Of a stretch of 64,000 nt of DNA, positions 23,984 to 31,090 are shown piece after piece (position 1 is the first letter of the stretch; each line of letters opens with the position of its first letter). A model generated the notes under the pieces. That model was not told where the DNA came from and searched no databases. It saw only the letters and a list, made by a program, of their open reading frames with translations. The position numbers were made by a program, and so were the translations under genes. This stretch comes from Tolypothrix carrinoi HA7290-LM1 (GTDB lineage: Bacteria; Cyanobacteriota; Cyanobacteriia; Cyanobacteriales; Nostocaceae): the NCBI GenBank assembly GCA_019358935.1, contig JAHHIK010000011.1, positions 1 through 64,000 on the forward strand, in the 5' to 3' direction.

Positions 23984-24364
23984 TTGAGTAGCCATCAAGC
24001 CGTGAATACAGAGGCTAGAAAGAAACTAATAGAAATAGTCAAAAAAACTCGTGGTACCATGAGTCAGCGAGCGTTTGCTAAACTTTTGGGAGTTTCTACT
24101 ACTGCTGTTCAGTCATGGGAAAGGGGTGACAGCGTTCCAGATACCGAGAATTTGGCAAAAATAGCAGCTCGTGCAAGCTATACCTTAGAGCAGTTACTCG
24201 CCTATTTAGACGGCAAGTCATTACCAGAAAATTCCGAATTTTCAACGATTTTGAAACAAATCAAGTATATGCCTTTGTCTCAAGTCGCTCAGATAGCTCA
24301 AGCTGCTGCGGAGCGATTTGCTTCTGTTGCTGAAGCTTCAGGAGATGAAGCCAAAGCCAGTTGA
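23984..24364 (+). CDS. XRE-family HTH transcriptional regulator (copy 1; likely GTG start at 24002)
   Basis: 'MSQRAFAKLLGVSTTAVQSWERGDSVP' cro/C1 HTH. Confidence 0.9.
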   Translation: MSSHQAVNTEARKKLIEIVKKTRGTMSQRAFAKLLGVSTTAVQSWERGDSVPDTENLAKIAARASYTLEQLLAYLDGKSLPENSEFSTILKQIKYMPLSQVAQIAQAAAERFASVAEASGDEAKAS

Positions 24365-24574
24365 GAAACACAAAAAACGAATCACTCCAGGTACAAAAAC
24401 ATAAATACGAAACTTGTAAGTAGTGAACATTGTTATCTAAGGATTTAAATGAAGATTGCTTTATTAGAACCTTGCTTTTAGCTTATCAATAACAATGAAG
24501 CATGTCAAGGGGCAAGTAAAATTGTAGGTCTTGCTCACTAAACTTATAAGTACAGTTGAGTAGCTACATCAGCA

Positions 24575-24937
24575 GTGAACATAGAAAGCAGAGAAAAACT
24601 GATTGAAATTATCAAATTAGCTCGTGGTTCAATGAGTCAACGAGCTTTTGGCAAGCTTTTGGGGGTTTCTGCTACTGCTGTACAGTTGTGGGAAAAGGGT
24701 GTGAATGTGCCAGACACCGAATATTTGGCTCAAATTGCAACCAGAGCAGGCTATACGTTGGAAGAGTTACTCTGTTGTTTGGAAGGTAAAGCAGTACCAG
24801 AAACCTCAGATTTGAGTGTGATTTTAAGACAAATCAATCATATGCCTTTGTCTCAAGTGGCTCAGATAGTTCAAGCTGCTGCTGCGAGATTGGCTGCTGT
24901 GGCTGAGTCTGCGGGTGATGAAGCGAAAGTTAGTTGA
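24575..24937 (+). CDS. XRE-family HTH transcriptional regulator (copy 2, paralogue of copy 1)
   Basis: 'MSQRAFGKLLGVSATAVQLWEKGVNVP'; colinear with copy 1 along its whole length. Confidence 0.9.
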   Translation: MNIESREKLIEIIKLARGSMSQRAFGKLLGVSATAVQLWEKGVNVPDTEYLAQIATRAGYTLEELLCCLEGKAVPETSDLSVILRQINHMPLSQVAQIVQAAAARLAAVAESAGDEAKVS

Positions 24938-25129: not shown

Positions 25130-27814
25130 ATGGTAGCAACCACTGAAAGTCTCGATAAGTTTGTTAATTTTTGTAAGCAGCACATCAAAGGCGAAGAAAG
25201 AAAAGAAGCGCAAACGTTTCTAGATCGGTTTTTTCGAGCGTTTGGACATGAGGGAGCGCTAGAAGCGGGAGCGAGTTACGAAGAAGCGATAAAAAAAGGC
25301 AGCAAGAAGGGTAAAACCGGCTTTGCTGATTTGGTGTGGAAACCCCGCGTATTGATTGAGATGAAGAAGCGCGGGGAAGATTTAAGTAAGCATTATTCTC
25401 AGGCTTTTGATTATTGGACGCGGTTAGTACCAAATCGCCCGCGTTATGTGTTGTTGTGCAATTTTGAGGAATTCTGGATTTTTGACTTTGATATTCAACT
25501 AGATACACCCGTAGATGTAATTCCCCTAGAGCAACTGCCAGAAAGGGCAGGAGCCTTTGCATTTATGGAATTACGGGAAAAAACTCCTGTATTTAGAAAT
25601 AATCAGGTAGTGGTCACAGAACGCGCCGCACACCGCATGGGAGAATTGCTGCTGGAATTGGAAAAGCGCAAAATTGAGAAGTTGACAGCGCAGCGGTTTA
25701 TTTTGCAATGCGTGCTAGCGATGTTTGCTGAAGATAGGCAATTATTACCCCGTGATATGTTTATTTCCTGCGTTCAGGATTGCATAAAAAGGGCAAGTTC
25801 TGACGATGTTTTGGGTGGTTTATTTCGGGAAATGAATCAGCCAGGAATTACGCCAGCGGGACGTTATAAAGGCGTAGATTATTTTAACGGCGGTTTATTT
25901 TCGTTGATTCATGGAATTGATTTGACGCGAGAAGAATTGAATTTTTTGGATGTATCAGCGCGGGAAGATTGGAGTAAAGTACGTCCGGCGATTTTCGGCA
26001 ATTTATTTGAAGGGACGGTGGATAAAAAAGAGCGTCATGCACGCGGAATTCACTTTACTTCAGAAGCGGACATTATGAAAATTGTCCGTCCAACTATTAG
26101 TAGATATTGGGAAGAAAGAATTGAAGCGGCAACGACTATTGCAGAACTTTCGGCTTTGCAATTGGAATTGCAAAGTTATCGGGTGTTAGATCCGGCTTGT
26201 GGTTCGGGAAATTTTCTCTACATGGCGTATCAAGAATTAAAGCGAATTGAAATGCTGTTGCTAGATAAAATTGCCCAGCGTCGGAAGTCGGCTAATGAGC
26301 AAATGCAAATGGGATTTGTCACGCCACAACAATTTTATGGGATGGATACAAATCCGTTTGCGGTGGAGTTAGCGCGGGTAACTTTAATGATAGCTCGGAA
26401 GATTGCTATTGATAATTTAAAGTTGACTGAACCGGCTTTGCCTTTGGATAGTTTGGATAATAATATTGTTTGTCAGGATGCGCTTTTTAGTGAATGGCAC
26501 AAAGCGGATGTAATTATAGGTAATCCTCCCTTTTTGGGTGGTAAGAATATAAGAACAGCTTTGGGAGATGACTATATAGATAAGGTTTTTCAACGCTTTG
26601 CGGATGTGAAAGATTCTGTAGATTTTTGTGCTTATTGGTTTAGGTTAGCTCATAATAGCATTGACGAAAAAGGTAGAGCCGGATTAGTTGGGACTAATTC
26701 AGTTAGTCAAGGGAAAAGTAGAATTGCTGCTTTAGATTATATTACTCAAAAGGGTGGCTATATTCATGAAGCTGTTTCTACACAACCTTGGTCGGGTGAG
26801 GCTAAAGTTCATGTTAGTATTGTGAACTGGAGTAAGGAACAGGCGGAAAAATATTATTTAGATAATCAAGTAGTTTTGAGAATAAGTTATTCACTAAAAG
26901 CGACAATTGATGTTTCACAGGCTATTAGATTAAAAGCTAATCTCAATAAATGCTTTCAAGGTGTAATTCCTGTTGGCAAAGGATTTATTGTAACAGAACA
27001 GCAAGTGAAAGATTGGGCAAAGGCTGACTCAGAAAATCAAAAAGTCTGTAAACTTTTATCAGATGCTACAAGTTTAACTGATAATCCTCATGGAAAGCCC
27101 AAGCGATGGATTATTGATTTTAACGATATGAGTGTTGAGGAAGCTAGTGATTATGTTTTACCTTTTGAACACCTGAAAGCGACTGTTAAACTAGAAAGAG
27201 ATAGAAATCGTAGAGAAGTAACCAAAATAAATTGGTGGAGGTTTGGCGAAAAAAGACCAGCAATGAGAGAAGCGATCGCACCTTTATCCTGCTACTTTAA
27301 TATTCCCAGACATTCTAAATGGTTTATTTTTATCCCGGCTAAACCTAACTGGCTACCAGGTGACTCTACAAATGTTGTTGCTGAAGATGATTTCTATATT
27401 CTTGGAATTATCACATCTAAAGTTCATCGTCTTTGGGTTAGAGCTACAAGTTCAACTTTGAAGGAAGACACTCGCTATACTCACAATACGTGCTTTGAAA
27501 CCTTCCCCTTTCCCCAAAAACCTGAGGCTAAATTAGTTAATCAAATTCGCGCCAAAGCTGAAGAACTTCATCAATATCGCACTCAACAAATGTCAGCGAA
27601 ACAGTGGGGAATTACGACGCTGTACAATAAGTTTTTTAATGAGCCAACGAGCCAACTTTATAAACTGCATGAACAGCTTGATAAATTGGTGATGCAAGCT
27701 TACGATTTTAATCCTAACGACGATATTTTAGAGAAGCTGCTGGAATTGAATTTAGAATTAGCCGAAAAAGAGAAACAAGGTAAAACTATTGTAGGTTCTT
27801 CAGCACCCAGTTAA
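25130..27814 (+). CDS. MmeI-like Type IIL/IIG restriction endonuclease-methyltransferase fusion
   Basis: N-terminal PD-(D/E)xK 'FADLVW..LIEMK'; helical spacer 'PAIFGNLFE..ERHARGIHFTSEADI'; motif I 'LDPACGSGNFL'; motif IV 'IGNPPF'; TRD/C-terminal 'RYT..CFETFPFP', 'TLYN'. Confidence 0.9.
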   Translation: MVATTESLDKFVNFCKQHIKGEERKEAQTFLDRFFRAFGHEGALEAGASYEEAIKKGSKKGKTGFADLVWKPRVLIEMKKRGEDLSKHYSQAFDYWTRLVPNRPRYVLLCNFEEFWIFDFDIQLDTPVDVIPLEQLPERAGAFAFMELREKTPVFRNNQVVVTERAAHRMGELLLELEKRKIEKLTAQRFILQCVLAMFAEDRQLLPRDMFISCVQDCIKRASSDDVLGGLFREMNQPGITPAGRYKGVDYFNGGLFSLIHGIDLTREELNFLDVSAREDWSKVRPAIFGNLFEGTVDKKERHARGIHFTSEADIMKIVRPTISRYWEERIEAATTIAELSALQLELQSYRVLDPACGSGNFLYMAYQELKRIEMLLLDKIAQRRKSANEQMQMGFVTPQQFYGMDTNPFAVELARVTLMIARKIAIDNLKLTEPALPLDSLDNNIVCQDALFSEWHKADVIIGNPPFLGGKNIRTALGDDYIDKVFQRFADVKDSVDFCAYWFRLAHNSIDEKGRAGLVGTNSVSQGKSRIAALDYITQKGGYIHEAVSTQPWSGEAKVHVSIVNWSKEQAEKYYLDNQVVLRISYSLKATIDVSQAIRLKANLNKCFQGVIPVGKGFIVTEQQVKDWAKADSENQKVCKLLSDATSLTDNPHGKPKRWIIDFNDMSVEEASDYVLPFEHLKATVKLERDRNRREVTKINWWRFGEKRPAMREAIAPLSCYFNIPRHSKWFIFIPAKPNWLPGDSTNVVAEDDFYILGIITSKVHRLWVRATSSTLKEDTRYTHNTCFETFPFPQKPEAKLVNQIRAKAEELHQYRTQQMSAKQWGITTLYNKFFNEPTSQLYKLHEQLDKLVMQAYDFNPNDDILEKLLELNLELAEKEKQGKTIVGSSAPS

Positions 27815-27916: not shown

Positions 27917-28732
27917 GTGAAAACCGACAGCATCTTTTATCGCTTATTTCAAGAATTCCCCAGCATCTTCTTTGAACTCATTGGCGAACCTCCAGAAGAA
28001 GCCAATTTATATCAATTTTCGTCAGTTGAAGTTAAACAAACAGCATTCAGAATTGATGGAGTTTTTCTCCCTACCCAAACAGAGGAAAACCCAGTTTACT
28101 TTGTTGAAGTACAATTTCAGCCAGACTCAGAAATTTACTCTCGACTGTTTGCAGAAATATGTTTATATCTTCGTCAAAACAAGCCGGAAAATGATTGGCG
28201 TGCTGTGGTTGTATATCCAACTCAAAGCACAGACACAGGAGATATAAAACATTACCGCGAGTTCTTCAGCAGTCAGCGAGTCAGTCGCATTTATCTAGAT
28301 GAATTAGGCGAAGCTACATCGCTACCAATTGGCATTGCTACTATCAAGTTAGTGATTTCAGATGAAGAGATAGCGATCGCACAAGCAAGGCAGTTAATAG
28401 ACAGAGTTCAGCAAAATGTCGGCGGTGGAATTCCTCAAGAGCAATTATTACAATTAATAGAGACAATCATCGTCTACAAGTTTCCAAGGATGACTAGGGA
28501 GGAAATACAAGCAATGTTTAGTTTAAGTGAGTTAAAGCAAACCAGATTTTATCAGGAAGCCTTCACAGAAGGCAAGGAAGAAGGCAAACGCGAACTTACT
28601 TTAAACGCTGTACGCCAATTTTTGGCATTGGGGTTTAGTTTAGAGCAGATAGCACAAGGCTTAAGTCTAAGTGTTGAGGAAGTAAGACAAATGGCACAAC
28701 AGCAGTCTTCAAATGAGCAAGGCAATAGTTGA
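27917..28732 (+). CDS. Rpn-family (DUF2887) PD-(D/E)xK nuclease / toxin
   Basis: 'MKTDSIFYRLFQ', 'VEVKQTAFRIDGVFLP..YFVEVQFQ', C-terminal 'EEIQAMFSLSELKQTRFYQE..EG.EEG' tail. Confidence 0.9.
   Translation: MKTDSIFYRLFQEFPSIFFELIGEPPEEANLYQFSSVEVKQTAFRIDGVFLPTQTEENPVYFVEVQFQPDSEIYSRLFAEICLYLRQNKPENDWRAVVVYPTQSTDTGDIKHYREFFSSQRVSRIYLDELGEATSLPIGIATIKLVISDEEIAIAQARQLIDRVQQNVGGGIPQEQLLQLIETIIVYKFPRMTREEIQAMFSLSELKQTRFYQEAFTEGKEEGKRELTLNAVRQFLALGFSLEQIAQGLSLSVEEVRQMAQQQSSNEQGNS
28514..28732 (+). CDS. Putative nested in-frame RpnS-like antitoxin (72 aa)
   Basis: Internal GGAGG about 11 nt upstream of an in-frame ATG (MFSLSELKQ..). The same RBS+ATG starts the downstream stand-alone copies. Confidence 0.6.
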   Translation: MFSLSELKQTRFYQEAFTEGKEEGKRELTLNAVRQFLALGFSLEQIAQGLSLSVEEVRQMAQQQSSNEQGNS

Positions 28733-28773
28733 AATCATAACTTGACAACAAGCTTCAAGAGGAAATACAAGCA

Positions 28774-29016
28774 ATGTTTAGTTTAAGTGAGTTAAAGCAA
28801 ACCAGATTTTACCAGGAAGCCTTCACAGAAGGCAAGGAAGAAGGCATAGAACAAGGCAGAGAACAAGGCATAGAACAAGGCAAACGCGAAGTTACTTTAA
28901 ACGCTGTACGCCAATTTTTGGCATTAGGGCTTAGTTTAGAGCAGATAGCACAAGGCTTAAGTCTAAGTCTTGAGGAAGTAAGACAAATGGCACAACAACA
29001 GTCTTCAAACGAGTAA
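28774..29016 (+). CDS. Stand-alone RpnS-like C-terminal module, copy 2 (80 aa)
   Basis: Near-identical to the Rpn C-terminus, with an expanded EQGI/EQGR repeat and an AAGAGG RBS. Confidence 0.75.
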   Translation: MFSLSELKQTRFYQEAFTEGKEEGIEQGREQGIEQGKREVTLNAVRQFLALGLSLEQIAQGLSLSLEEVRQMAQQQSSNE

Positions 29017-29069
29017 GGCAATAGTTGAAATCCTAATTTGACAACAAGCTTCAGGAGGAAATACAGACA

Positions 29070-29271
29070 ATGTTTAGTATAAGTGAGTTCAAGCAAACCA
29101 GATTTTATCAGGAAGCCTTTGTTTGAAGGTAAGGAACAAGGTAGAGAAGAAGGGAAACGCGAAGTTTATTCAAGCGCTGTACGCCGCCTTCTGGCATTAG
29201 GATTTAGTTTAGAGCAGATAGCATTATGCTTAGGCTTGAGTATTGAAGAAGTAACGCAAGCAGCGCAGTAG
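29070..29271 (+). pseudogene. RpnS-like module, copy 3, with a frameshift
   Basis: CAGGAGG RBS; ATG 29070 reads MFSISEFKQTRFYQEAFV*, and the rest (EGKEQGREEGKREVYSSAVRRLLALGFSLEQIA..) is in another frame. Confidence 0.75.
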
Positions 29272-29395: not shown

Positions 29396-31090
29396 ATGCT
29401 GCGACTTGAACATATCAGTAAAATTTATCCCACAGGCGAAATTCTCAAAGATGTCAACTGGGAAGTCAAAGTTGGCGATCGCATCGGCTTGGTGGGTGTC
29501 AACGGTGCCGGAAAATCTACCCAACTGAAAATCATCGCCGGCGAAATCGAACCCACCGCTGGCGAAATTATTCGTCCGGCTAGCTTACACATAGCTTACC
29601 TCAACCAAGAATTTGAAGTAGACCCCAGCCGTACTGTTAAAGAAGAATTTTGGCGTGCCTTTGTCGAAGCAAACAAAGTTAATGAAGCTTTGTCACAGGT
29701 GCATCGGGAAATGGAAACGGCAACTCCAGACCAGTTAAACAAACTGATCGACAAAATGGATCGTCTCCAAAGGCAGTTTGAAGCACTTGATGGCTATGGA
29801 TTAGAGGCAAAAATTGACAAAATTTTGCCAGAAATGGGTTTTGATGGCGGTGATAGCGATCGCCTGGTAAGTGCTTTCAGTGGCGGTTGGCAAATGCGGA
29901 TGAGTTTGGGTAAAATACTGCTGCAAAAACCCGACTTATTGCTGCTGGACGAACCTACCAACCATCTGGACTTAGAAACCATTGAGTGGTTAGAAAATTA
30001 CCTCAAAGGGCTGACTACCCCGATGGTAATAGTATCTCATGACCGGGAATTTTTAGATCGCCTCTGCACCCAAATTGTAGAAACAGAACGCGGTGTCTCT
30101 AGTTATTACCTCGGCAACTACTCCGCCTACCTGCAACAAAAAGCCGAAAGTCAACAAGCGCAACTTAATGCTTACGAACGTCAGCAGAAAGAACTAGAAA
30201 AACAGCAAACGTTTGTTGACAGATTCCGCGCTAGTGCTACCCGCAGTACCCAAGCAAAAAGCCGCGAAAAACAACTTGAAAAAATTGAACGCATTGAGGC
30301 GCCCGTAGCTGGTGTCAGAACTTTGCACTTCCGCTTTCCCCCCGCACCCCGCAGCGGACGCGAGGTAGTGGAAATTAAAGATTTAACTCATATCTACGAT
30401 GATAAAATTCTCTTTTTAGGCGCAAATCTTTTAATTGAAAGAGGCGATCGCATCGCTTTTCTTGGTCCAAACGGTGCCGGTAAATCTACTCTCCTGCGTT
30501 TGATTACGGGTAGCGAAAAACAGACAGAAGGGACTGTTCACTTAGGCGACCACAACGTTATTCCCGGTTACTTCGAGCAAAATCAAGCCGAAGCTTTGGA
30601 TTTAAAGAAAACTGTCATGGAAACCATCCATGATGAAGTTCCCGACTGGAAAAATGAAGAAGTCCGCACGCTGTTAGGACGCTTTTTGTTTTCTGGGGAC
30701 ACGGTGTTGAAATCTGTGGCTGCATTAAGTGGGGGAGAAAAAGCGCGTTTAGCATTAGCGAAAATGCTTTTACGTCCAGCGAATTTACTCATTTTAGATG
30801 AGCCGACAAACCATCTAGATATCCCAGCAAAAGAAATGCTGGAAGAAGCAATCCAAAATTATGATGGCACTGTAATTGTTGTTTCTCACGACCGTTATTT
30901 TATTTCTCAGGTAGCAAATAAAATCGTCGAAATCCGCGATGGCGAATTCCGCGTCTATCTAGGGGATTATCATTACTATCTCGATAAAATTGCCGAAGAA
31001 AAAGAACAAGCAAGATTAGAAGCGATCGCCGCTGAAAAAGCCGCCAAAAAAGCCGCCAAAGCTGCAAAAGCCGGCGGCAAAAGGAAATGA
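29396..31090 (+). CDS. ABC-F family ATP-binding protein
   Basis: Two ABC cassettes (GVNGAGKST, FSGGW, LDEPTNHLD; GPNGAGKST, LSGGEK), inter-domain linker, no TM segments. Confidence 0.95.
   Translation: MLRLEHISKIYPTGEILKDVNWEVKVGDRIGLVGVNGAGKSTQLKIIAGEIEPTAGEIIRPASLHIAYLNQEFEVDPSRTVKEEFWRAFVEANKVNEALSQVHREMETATPDQLNKLIDKMDRLQRQFEALDGYGLEAKIDKILPEMGFDGGDSDRLVSAFSGGWQMRMSLGKILLQKPDLLLLDEPTNHLDLETIEWLENYLKGLTTPMVIVSHDREFLDRLCTQIVETERGVSSYYLGNYSAYLQQKAESQQAQLNAYERQQKELEKQQTFVDRFRASATRSTQAKSREKQLEKIERIEAPVAGVRTLHFRFPPAPRSGREVVEIKDLTHIYDDKILFLGANLLIERGDRIAFLGPNGAGKSTLLRLITGSEKQTEGTVHLGDHNVIPGYFEQNQAEALDLKKTVMETIHDEVPDWKNEEVRTLLGRFLFSGDTVLKSVAALSGGEKARLALAKMLLRPANLLILDEPTNHLDIPAKEMLEEAIQNYDGTVIVVSHDRYFISQVANKIVEIRDGEFRVYLGDYHYYLDKIAEEKEQARLEAIAAEKAAKKAAKAAKAGGKRK

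Follow-up and report, generated by a model that had tools for sequence, protein, structure and literature searches.

Stand-alone tail copies behind a DUF2887 nuclease gene of Tolypothrix carrinoi, a likely record of tail swapping

In Escherichia coli, the small protein RpnS inhibits the nuclease RpnL, with a specificity that depends on tetrads, variable four-residue repeats located 8 to 20 residues past the internal methionine in the first helix. In the parts of the study available to us (Zhong 2023; PMC10400941), one added tetrad abolished the neutralization of RpnC, and RpnAS and RpnBS did not cross-neutralize. The same parts describe ypaA (RpnESs), an expressed copy of the tail downstream of rpnE, and three more types of stand-alone copy (RpnCSs, RpnFSs, and RpnP1Ss). 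Such copies disappear through deletion or through fusion with the N-terminal domain, and RpnESs and RpnCSs each group with the gene upstream of them. No function is reported for RpnSs in those parts, and RpnL/RpnS tests have been confined to E. coli YhgA-like proteins and one C. difficile gene; an extra cognate antitoxin is the reading suggested there and in Koonin's commentary, which treats the second copy as unexplained flexibility. In K-12, we find that the homology of ypaA begins at the Shine-Dalgarno sequence and that it has one more tetrad than rpnE. Why tetrads vary, and where the downstream copies come from and what they do, is left open by both papers. Our literature searches, which covered mainly journals outside subscription, returned no paper on multicopy or exchanged RpnSs or on the function of DUF2887, listed as a separate Pfam family of unknown function in the part consulted of Steczkiewicz 2012 (PMC3424549).

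Here, we compare these systems with a locus in a 64,000-nucleotide stretch of Tolypothrix carrinoi HA7290-LM1 (the window), whose closest named relatives are Tolypothrix, Hassallia, and other Nostocaceae. As with rpnE-ypaA, RpnCSs, RpnFSs, and RpnP1Ss in the published text at hand, a stand-alone second copy of the tail stands directly behind the gene. Therefore, the anatomy described in a first-pass annotation of this DNA, made from the letters alone, is already known from Zhong 2023 and the K-12 ypaA layout, which limits its surprise; what comparison adds is the origin of the downstream tails. The locus also shares with RpnA, RpnB, RpnC, and RpnP2, as far as the accessible descriptions go, a PD-(D/E)XK domain, an internal start, first-helix tetrads, a helix-turn-helix-like tail, and a defense neighborhood. 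It differs from the E. coli RpnSs in belonging to the DUF2887 subfamily, in having two downstream copies, and in that DUF2887 loci exchange distinct tail types between positions and strains. In addition, the E. coli RpnL and RpnS proteins have been assayed, whereas the DUF2887 module is described here from its sequence.

A second comparison is offered by orphan arrays. In Vibrio cholerae, type VI secretion system (T6SS) immunity arrays grow by sequential displacement, and, as described in PMC5361080, a new allele arriving at a conserved anchor shifts the older immunity element downstream, and the members of the array correspond to alleles that are active elsewhere in the species, a pattern that our locus would share. 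In those systems, however, an injected effector is paired with a separate immunity gene, whereas the putative antitoxin in the window is the tail itself; no delivery system is evident here, and no row exceeds two copies. The orphan pairs CdiA-CT/CdiI and Rhs-CT/RhsI (PMC3150448) resemble our locus as downstream C-terminal modules that in other strains are joined to the full-length gene. Those tips are toxins lacking their delivery part, whereas the tip here is predicted to act as inhibitor and to set specificity, and it has a start of its own. The exported toxin and separate immunity gene that mark T6SS, Rhs, and CDI systems were both absent: no delivery domain was found in the 271-amino-acid protein (Pfam, TIGR01784, structure model), and the ORF list holds no separate immunity ORF at the locus. 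The row in the window works like a displacement-type orphan array and is not a member of that class.

By its profile matches, the nuclease gene (RpnL; positions 27917 to 28732, plus strand; 271 amino acids, GTG start) is a member of the Rpn family, DUF2887 subfamily. Its product matches PF11103 (DUF2887) with an E value of 5.6 × 10−88 (294.7 bits; Pfam cut-off, 24.1) and TIGR01784 (Rpn) with 3 × 10−50 (171.6 bits; cut-off, 52.1), bearing out the Rpn identity that had been proposed for it; PADLOC has no model for the gene. Residues D4, D47, E64, Q66, and R76 are kept in at least 97% of 138 homologues and pair, by motif spacing rather than alignment, with the RpnA catalytic residues D11, D63, E82, Q84, and R94 (Kingston 2017, as far as its text was available). 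The structure model matches NucS/EndoMS (Z 8.5; rmsd 3.3; 103 aligned residues), McrC (Z 7.4), and FokI (Z 6.5), so that model and conserved residues together indicate a PD-(D/E)XK fold with an intact catalytic motif. In the AlphaFold model, the in-gene tail has helices at residues 210 to 237, 242 to 248, and 253 to 270, and the model of the first downstream copy has a helix at 11 to 50. Both models predict a long helix followed by a helix-turn-helix. The fold matches listed for the tail models are generic helix-turn-helix domains, and 7TH0, the RpnAS structure, was absent among the matches listed in sequence and fold searches with the tail. Complex prediction for RpnL with this copy scored 0.11, against a mark of 0.32, and is given no weight in either direction.

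The sole observation here that relates to phage defense is an adjacent type IIG (MmeI-like) restriction-modification gene, directly upstream (25130 to 27814, plus strand), with a 3′ half that varies among relatives. That half (26401 to 27814) is 75 to 84% identical to relatives, versus 94 to 96% for the 5′ half, and the gene is internally deleted in the sister genome, G009. Farther upstream are two tandem helix-turn-helix regulator genes (23984 to 24937), of which G009 keeps one. Between the restriction gene and rpn, G009 (L141) and G001 (L146) have a small ORF, absent from the window, which presumably resembles a double-glycine leader peptide precursor. Downstream, a gene conserved among relatives (29396 to 31090, plus strand), which we take from its sequence motifs to be an ABC-F-type ATPase, serves as the anchor that defines the orthologous loci.

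The signature of an internal start ahead of the variable tail is strong. A GGAGG motif at 28498 to 28502 is followed 11 nt later by ATG 28514, and the two form a predicted internal start (28497 to 28516, plus strand) assigned from conservation, codon bias, and pairing energy. The internal methionine codon is ATG in 138 of 138 distinct intact homologues, which were chosen either because they resemble the query or because they belong to the genus and are related rather than independent. Codon −4 is GAG in 120 of the 138, against 23% of glutamate codons in the nuclease part, and the Shine-Dalgarno sequence ahead of 28514 is synonymously constrained. The median anti-Shine-Dalgarno pairing energy is −9.1 at the internal start and −2.4 at 671 other in-frame ATG or GTG codons. 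An internal ribosome site and start before a variable tail is the sequence signature of RpnL/RpnS, and translation is predicted to begin at 28514. The gene is thereby predicted to carry its own small antitoxin gene within the tail and is likely a toxin-antitoxin gene within a gene. A promoter scan gave no plus-strand site within the gene or the linkers; TTGACA, found in both linkers, was rejected as a promoter, being without a matching −10 element and lost in G004, G008, and L218.

The first-pass annotation had the last 72 codons, from the internal start onward, repeated twice downstream, and this holds. The in-gene RpnS-like module (28514 to 28732, plus strand; 72 amino acids, tail type A) combines a tetrad-bearing long helix with a helix-turn-helix. 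It is followed by linker 1 (28733 to 28773, plus strand; 41 nt), which consists of the 3′ flank of a type A tail and an AGAGG-type ribosome site. Copy 2 (28774 to 29016, plus strand; 80 amino acids, type A) is an intact stand-alone ORF of the RpnSs kind, homologous to the tail, with its own ribosome site, ATG (28774), and TAA stop (29014 to 29016). Outside a 36-nt (three-tetrad) insertion, it is 96% identical to the in-gene module. Its 12-bp tetrad tract (28829 to 28884, plus strand; 4.7 units by Tandem Repeats Finder) starts near residue 18, in the first helix, where the RpnL/RpnS repeats are placed. Linker 2 (29017 to 29069, plus strand; 53 nt, 41 of them matching linker 1) contains an AGGAGG ribosome site and is identical to the G009 linker. 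Copy 3 (29070 to 29271, plus strand) reads, from sequence and relatives, as a frameshifted RpnSs pseudogene of tail type B, 82% identical to the in-gene module. After its ATG at 29070, one extra base near 29118 to 29123 leads to a stop at 29124 to 29126, after 18 codons. This frameshift was rightly called earlier and is shared by G009; the equivalent type B module is full length in G006 and G008 and has a late stop in G004.

Other parts of that description needed adjustment. A linker of about 40 bp is indeed shared, over 41 nt, but only its last 15 to 16 nt are homologous to the gene, the rest being the 3′ flank of the preceding tail type. Each copy does have a ribosome site and ATG, but that of copy 2 is a weaker AGAGG and not GGAGG, and the pairing energies are −10.8 for the in-gene start, −10.3 for copy 3, and −5.9, the weakest, for copy 2. 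The copies differ in tetrad number as stated, but the terminal helices of copy 2 are nearly identical to those of the gene, and only copy 3 is of another tail type. Finally, "array" overstates a row in which one copy is intact and the other dead, and more than two downstream copies were found at none of the loci surveyed below.

We rejected an assembly artifact because a contig from public run X1, possibly the source sample, runs from tail 1 through the linker into copy 2, and its depth over this first junction is that of a single copy, at 494 compared with 493 and 510 on either side. A sequencing error in copy 3 was rejected on the grounds that no indel is listed at the break in any of four public runs and that G009 has the same break. 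In the genome as a whole, a nearby duplicate of the 3′ end (last 300 nt) accompanies 15 of 3,901 long ORFs, 5 of them Rpn-type, and apart from the Rpn-type genes, a single ORF, which is a simple repeat, is followed by a long copy immediately after its stop. Tail duplication behind an Rpn gene is more than chance.

Similar loci were then counted across relatives. The window genome (G000) has nine DUF2887 genes, five with a cognate downstream copy and one with a noncognate copy. Among 138 homologous genes, 38 have a downstream module and 100 (72%) have none. The homologous start is retained in 24 copies, distributed over 21 loci and with boundaries at −15 to −127 nt; 5 of the 24 are broken. Of the other 17 loci, 11 belong to a single Nostoc lineage and have a divergent module, 3 have a new ATG at the stop, 2 have cognate fragments that lack the start, and 1 is unclear. 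A narrow tandem pattern was found in 23 of 389 family genomes (reversed control, 0) and a pattern with longer spacing in 2 of 401 order genomes. Two downstream copies occur at five loci (the window, L028, L128, L213, and L218). At the orthologous locus, a downstream module is present in 8 of the 10 genus genomes where this can be read. No phage-borne RpnS was found among 601 candidate stretches in viral contigs.

Several variants were observed alongside. In Nostoc, a conserved noncognate downstream ORF of 103 amino acids, with two helix-turn-helix units, a dN/dS of 0.34, and its ATG lost in 3 of 10 cases, occurs at L035, L036, L038, L040, L041, L043, L053, L056, L058, and L064. At L133 and L210 (G004 C70), an RpnS head (ribosome site, ATG, and 14 codons) continues in frame into an unrelated ORF of 274 amino acids, and L115 has the same junction out of frame. 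In G000, a DUF2887 gene (C66:17511-18339) is interrupted shortly ahead of its internal start by a repeat element of 56 nt, present in 16 copies of at least 45 nt in the genome, and its RpnS-like part stays intact. Another gene (C160:10903-11900) has a disrupted N terminus, a different tail, which we take to be DUF4351-like, and a downstream copy with an equal tetrad number. Three proteins with Q/A-rich repeats at the end (C101:12107-12472, C120:13220-13363, and C22:17559-17702), presumably of a Uma2-like family, share the DUF2887 helix-turn-helix tail (profile E values, 2 × 10−11 to 7 × 10−6), and C101 has a partial downstream duplicate of its own tail. A second nuclease family may therefore share the DUF2887 tail logic.

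At the orthologous locus there are four tail types, A, B, C, and C′, and the tail tree separates the A, B, and C/C′ groups at 97 to 100% support. Types A, C, and C′ each occur both in-gene and downstream at this locus, and type B occurs downstream only. Type A is in-gene in G000, G003, G004, G006, G008, G009, and L219 (and, judged by a surviving end, G005) and downstream in the window and in the metagenome contig L218. Type C ends the gene in G002, G010, and L218 and lies downstream of it in G003 and G005; type C′ is downstream in G002, L218, and L219 and also stands behind the broken gene of G001. Every linker matches the tail preceding it. The resulting orders are N-C-C′ in G002, N-A-C′ in L219, and N-C-A-C′ in L218, the last being what a crossover that joins a downstream head with an in-gene head would be expected to produce. 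At a second locus, with flanks 98% identical, the in-gene tail of G006 shares 94.5% identity with the module lying downstream at G000 C82 and does not resemble the in-gene tail there. In contigs from public runs X2 (which may be G009 itself), X3, and X5, the nuclease ends in a tail of the copy 2 type, joined directly and with the same tetrad number in X5. As in displacement arrays, downstream modules match the in-gene alleles of other strains (L218/L219/G002 and C82/L173), and tails, on this comparative evidence, do move between toxin and downstream position. Because of this movement, the orphan immunity array and the reservoir of swappable cassettes, set against each other as alternatives in the first-pass annotation, look like two sides of one process.

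The row in the window carries its own trace of recombination. A breakpoint inside the nuclease gene (28308 to 28338, plus strand) was located by maximum chi-square and by a switch in affinity, with a permutation P of ≤0.0004 in 5 of 5 triplets. To its left, the gene goes with G009, and to its right, with G010/G002-type alleles: identity to G009 falls from 97 to 78% and identity to G010 rises from 85 to 96%. Housekeeping genes are 96 to 98.6% identical to G009. Copy 2 with its linker shows 5 differences from the in-gene tail of G009 and 12 from its own gene, and the tree groups it with the G009 tail (support, 69/76). The AU test did not reject a clade of copy 1 and copy 2 (P = 0.10), and we favor, short of statistical significance, the reading that copy 2 matches an in-gene allele of another strain. 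A single event would fit in either direction, an import displacing the resident tail or a deletion promoting the spare tail in relatives.

Our main reading, to which we assign a probability of roughly 0.55, is that downstream modules are displaced allele tails, born as self-starting antitoxins and recruitable back. Incoming DNA, by crossing over between its downstream head and the in-gene head of the resident locus, would insert a new tail and linker and push the old tail back behind the new one; the reverse event would delete a module and fuse the spare tail to the nuclease. The start and head block common to all three modules is the likely crossover anchor. Since a displaced tail would retain its internal Shine-Dalgarno sequence and ATG, it would be born as a gene. 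Relatives carry such spare tails fused to the nuclease, so the row in the window is likely a record of tail swapping. Extrapolating from E. coli RpnC, copy 2, with three more tetrads, would neutralize the matching allele rather than the current putative toxin. We know of no export route for Rpn proteins, and the benefit would therefore likely lie inside the cell, as cover against leftover old toxin while alleles segregate in a polyploid, multichromosome cell or upon the return of the old allele. Selection would then relax and older tails decay, as copy 3 has done. Weighing against displacement are the AU result, the 100 of 138 genes without a copy, the 5 of 24 broken copies, the weak ribosome site of copy 2, and the distance of the window nuclease from E. 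coli RpnE (21% identity over 105 amino acids). Moreover, the copy at most other loci is closest to its own gene, as would fit duplication or conversion in cis.

This last point leads to plain tandem duplication of a gene's own tail, giving an extra or separately regulated cognate antitoxin that later slips in tetrad number while binding is kept. We consider it unlikely, even though the unrejected clade of copies 1 and 2 agrees with it, as do the clustering of RpnESs and RpnCSs with their upstream genes (PMC10400941, parts consulted) and boundaries spread over −15 to −127 nt, as with many independent duplications. Duplication of a gene's own tail cannot yield the heterotypic rows at L218, L219, and C82/L173. 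Fresh duplicates should often have equal tetrad numbers, yet among 29 cis pairs at least 90% identical, 27 differ (20 shorter, 7 longer), always by multiples of 12 nt and even at 99.5% identity; the two equal pairs are at L217 and C160. Between genomes, tetrad number is equal in 82 of 361 comparable pairs (23%; 118 of 138 modules parsed). The mismatch gives a P of 0.025 per pair and 0.19 per lineage (2 of 18 equal versus 23%) in a test that leaves out the duplicate locus L203 and more divergent or truncated pairs, and assemblers may collapse perfect duplicates and so hide equal-tetrad pairs; a mismatch between gene and copy beyond chance is suggestive only. Retained binding also sits poorly with the loss of RpnC neutralization after a single added tetrad.

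Constraint on the copies bears on a further possibility, namely, that they are neutral debris of a recombination hotspot, in which the head block or the nuclease promotes unequal crossovers and the functionless tails decay. The death of copy 3 in both G000 and G009 (one synonymous and three nonsynonymous differences between them), the other broken copies, and the majority of genes without a copy agree with this, and a purifying signal can predate displacement. Between gene and close downstream copy, dN/dS is 0.19 in 13 intact pairs (0.21 between genomes) and 0.28 in 13 further pairs, values that include intact copies only and may reflect divergence from before displacement, when both were in-gene alleles. 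Nevertheless, orthologous downstream copies compared with each other give 0.15 for three copies of type B, which was found downstream only, 0.31 for six Nostoc copies (their genes, 0.15), and 0.34 for the ten divergent orphans. Downstream modules persist in most readable genomes of the genus, and the start is missing in only two cognate fragments. The downstream copies thus read as under real but relaxed constraint with frequent decay, and debris strikes us as quite improbable. The dN/dS near 1 that would have spoken for debris was not found, and the orphan-antitoxin reading of the first-pass annotation gains from these ratios, the invariant ATG, and the constrained Shine-Dalgarno sequence; it had, however, missed that stand-alone RpnSs and their loss through fusion with the nuclease are already in print.

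Frequent switching within one clone, by collapse onto copy 2 from a standing reservoir as in phase variation, appears very improbable. The 53-nt identical head would allow it, a collapsed form exists in relatives, and a fusion of the N-terminal domain with rpnSs is noted for E. coli (PMC10400941, same parts); on the other side, neither a recombinase nor a site was found, a collapse works in one direction only, with loss of the current tail, and no collapsed joint is listed in X1, a weak point because contigs drop rare variants. Immunity against other Rpn paralogues of the same genome, for which there would be partners among its nine DUF2887 genes, is not supported and seems scarcely credible: 4 of 4 copies tested are 93 to 97% identical to the adjacent tail and 42 to 70% to other paralogues, and RpnAS and RpnBS did not cross-neutralize in PMC10400941.

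If tails are displaced and recruited as proposed, nature has placed matched and mismatched toxin-antitoxin pairs next to one another at these loci: the present putative toxin stands beside copy 2, and relatives have the nuclease joined to a copy 2 tail. The data also extend the sequence signature of a gene within a gene to cyanobacterial DUF2887. More tentatively, and as a possibility that we would not bet on, Rpn loci may be self-immunizing polymorphic arrays, whose rows are a decaying but recruitable memory of past specificities. Because the antitoxin would be the toxin's own self-starting tail, each swap would leave a working antitoxin to the previous allele, and tetrad number and tail type could change without poisoning the cell.
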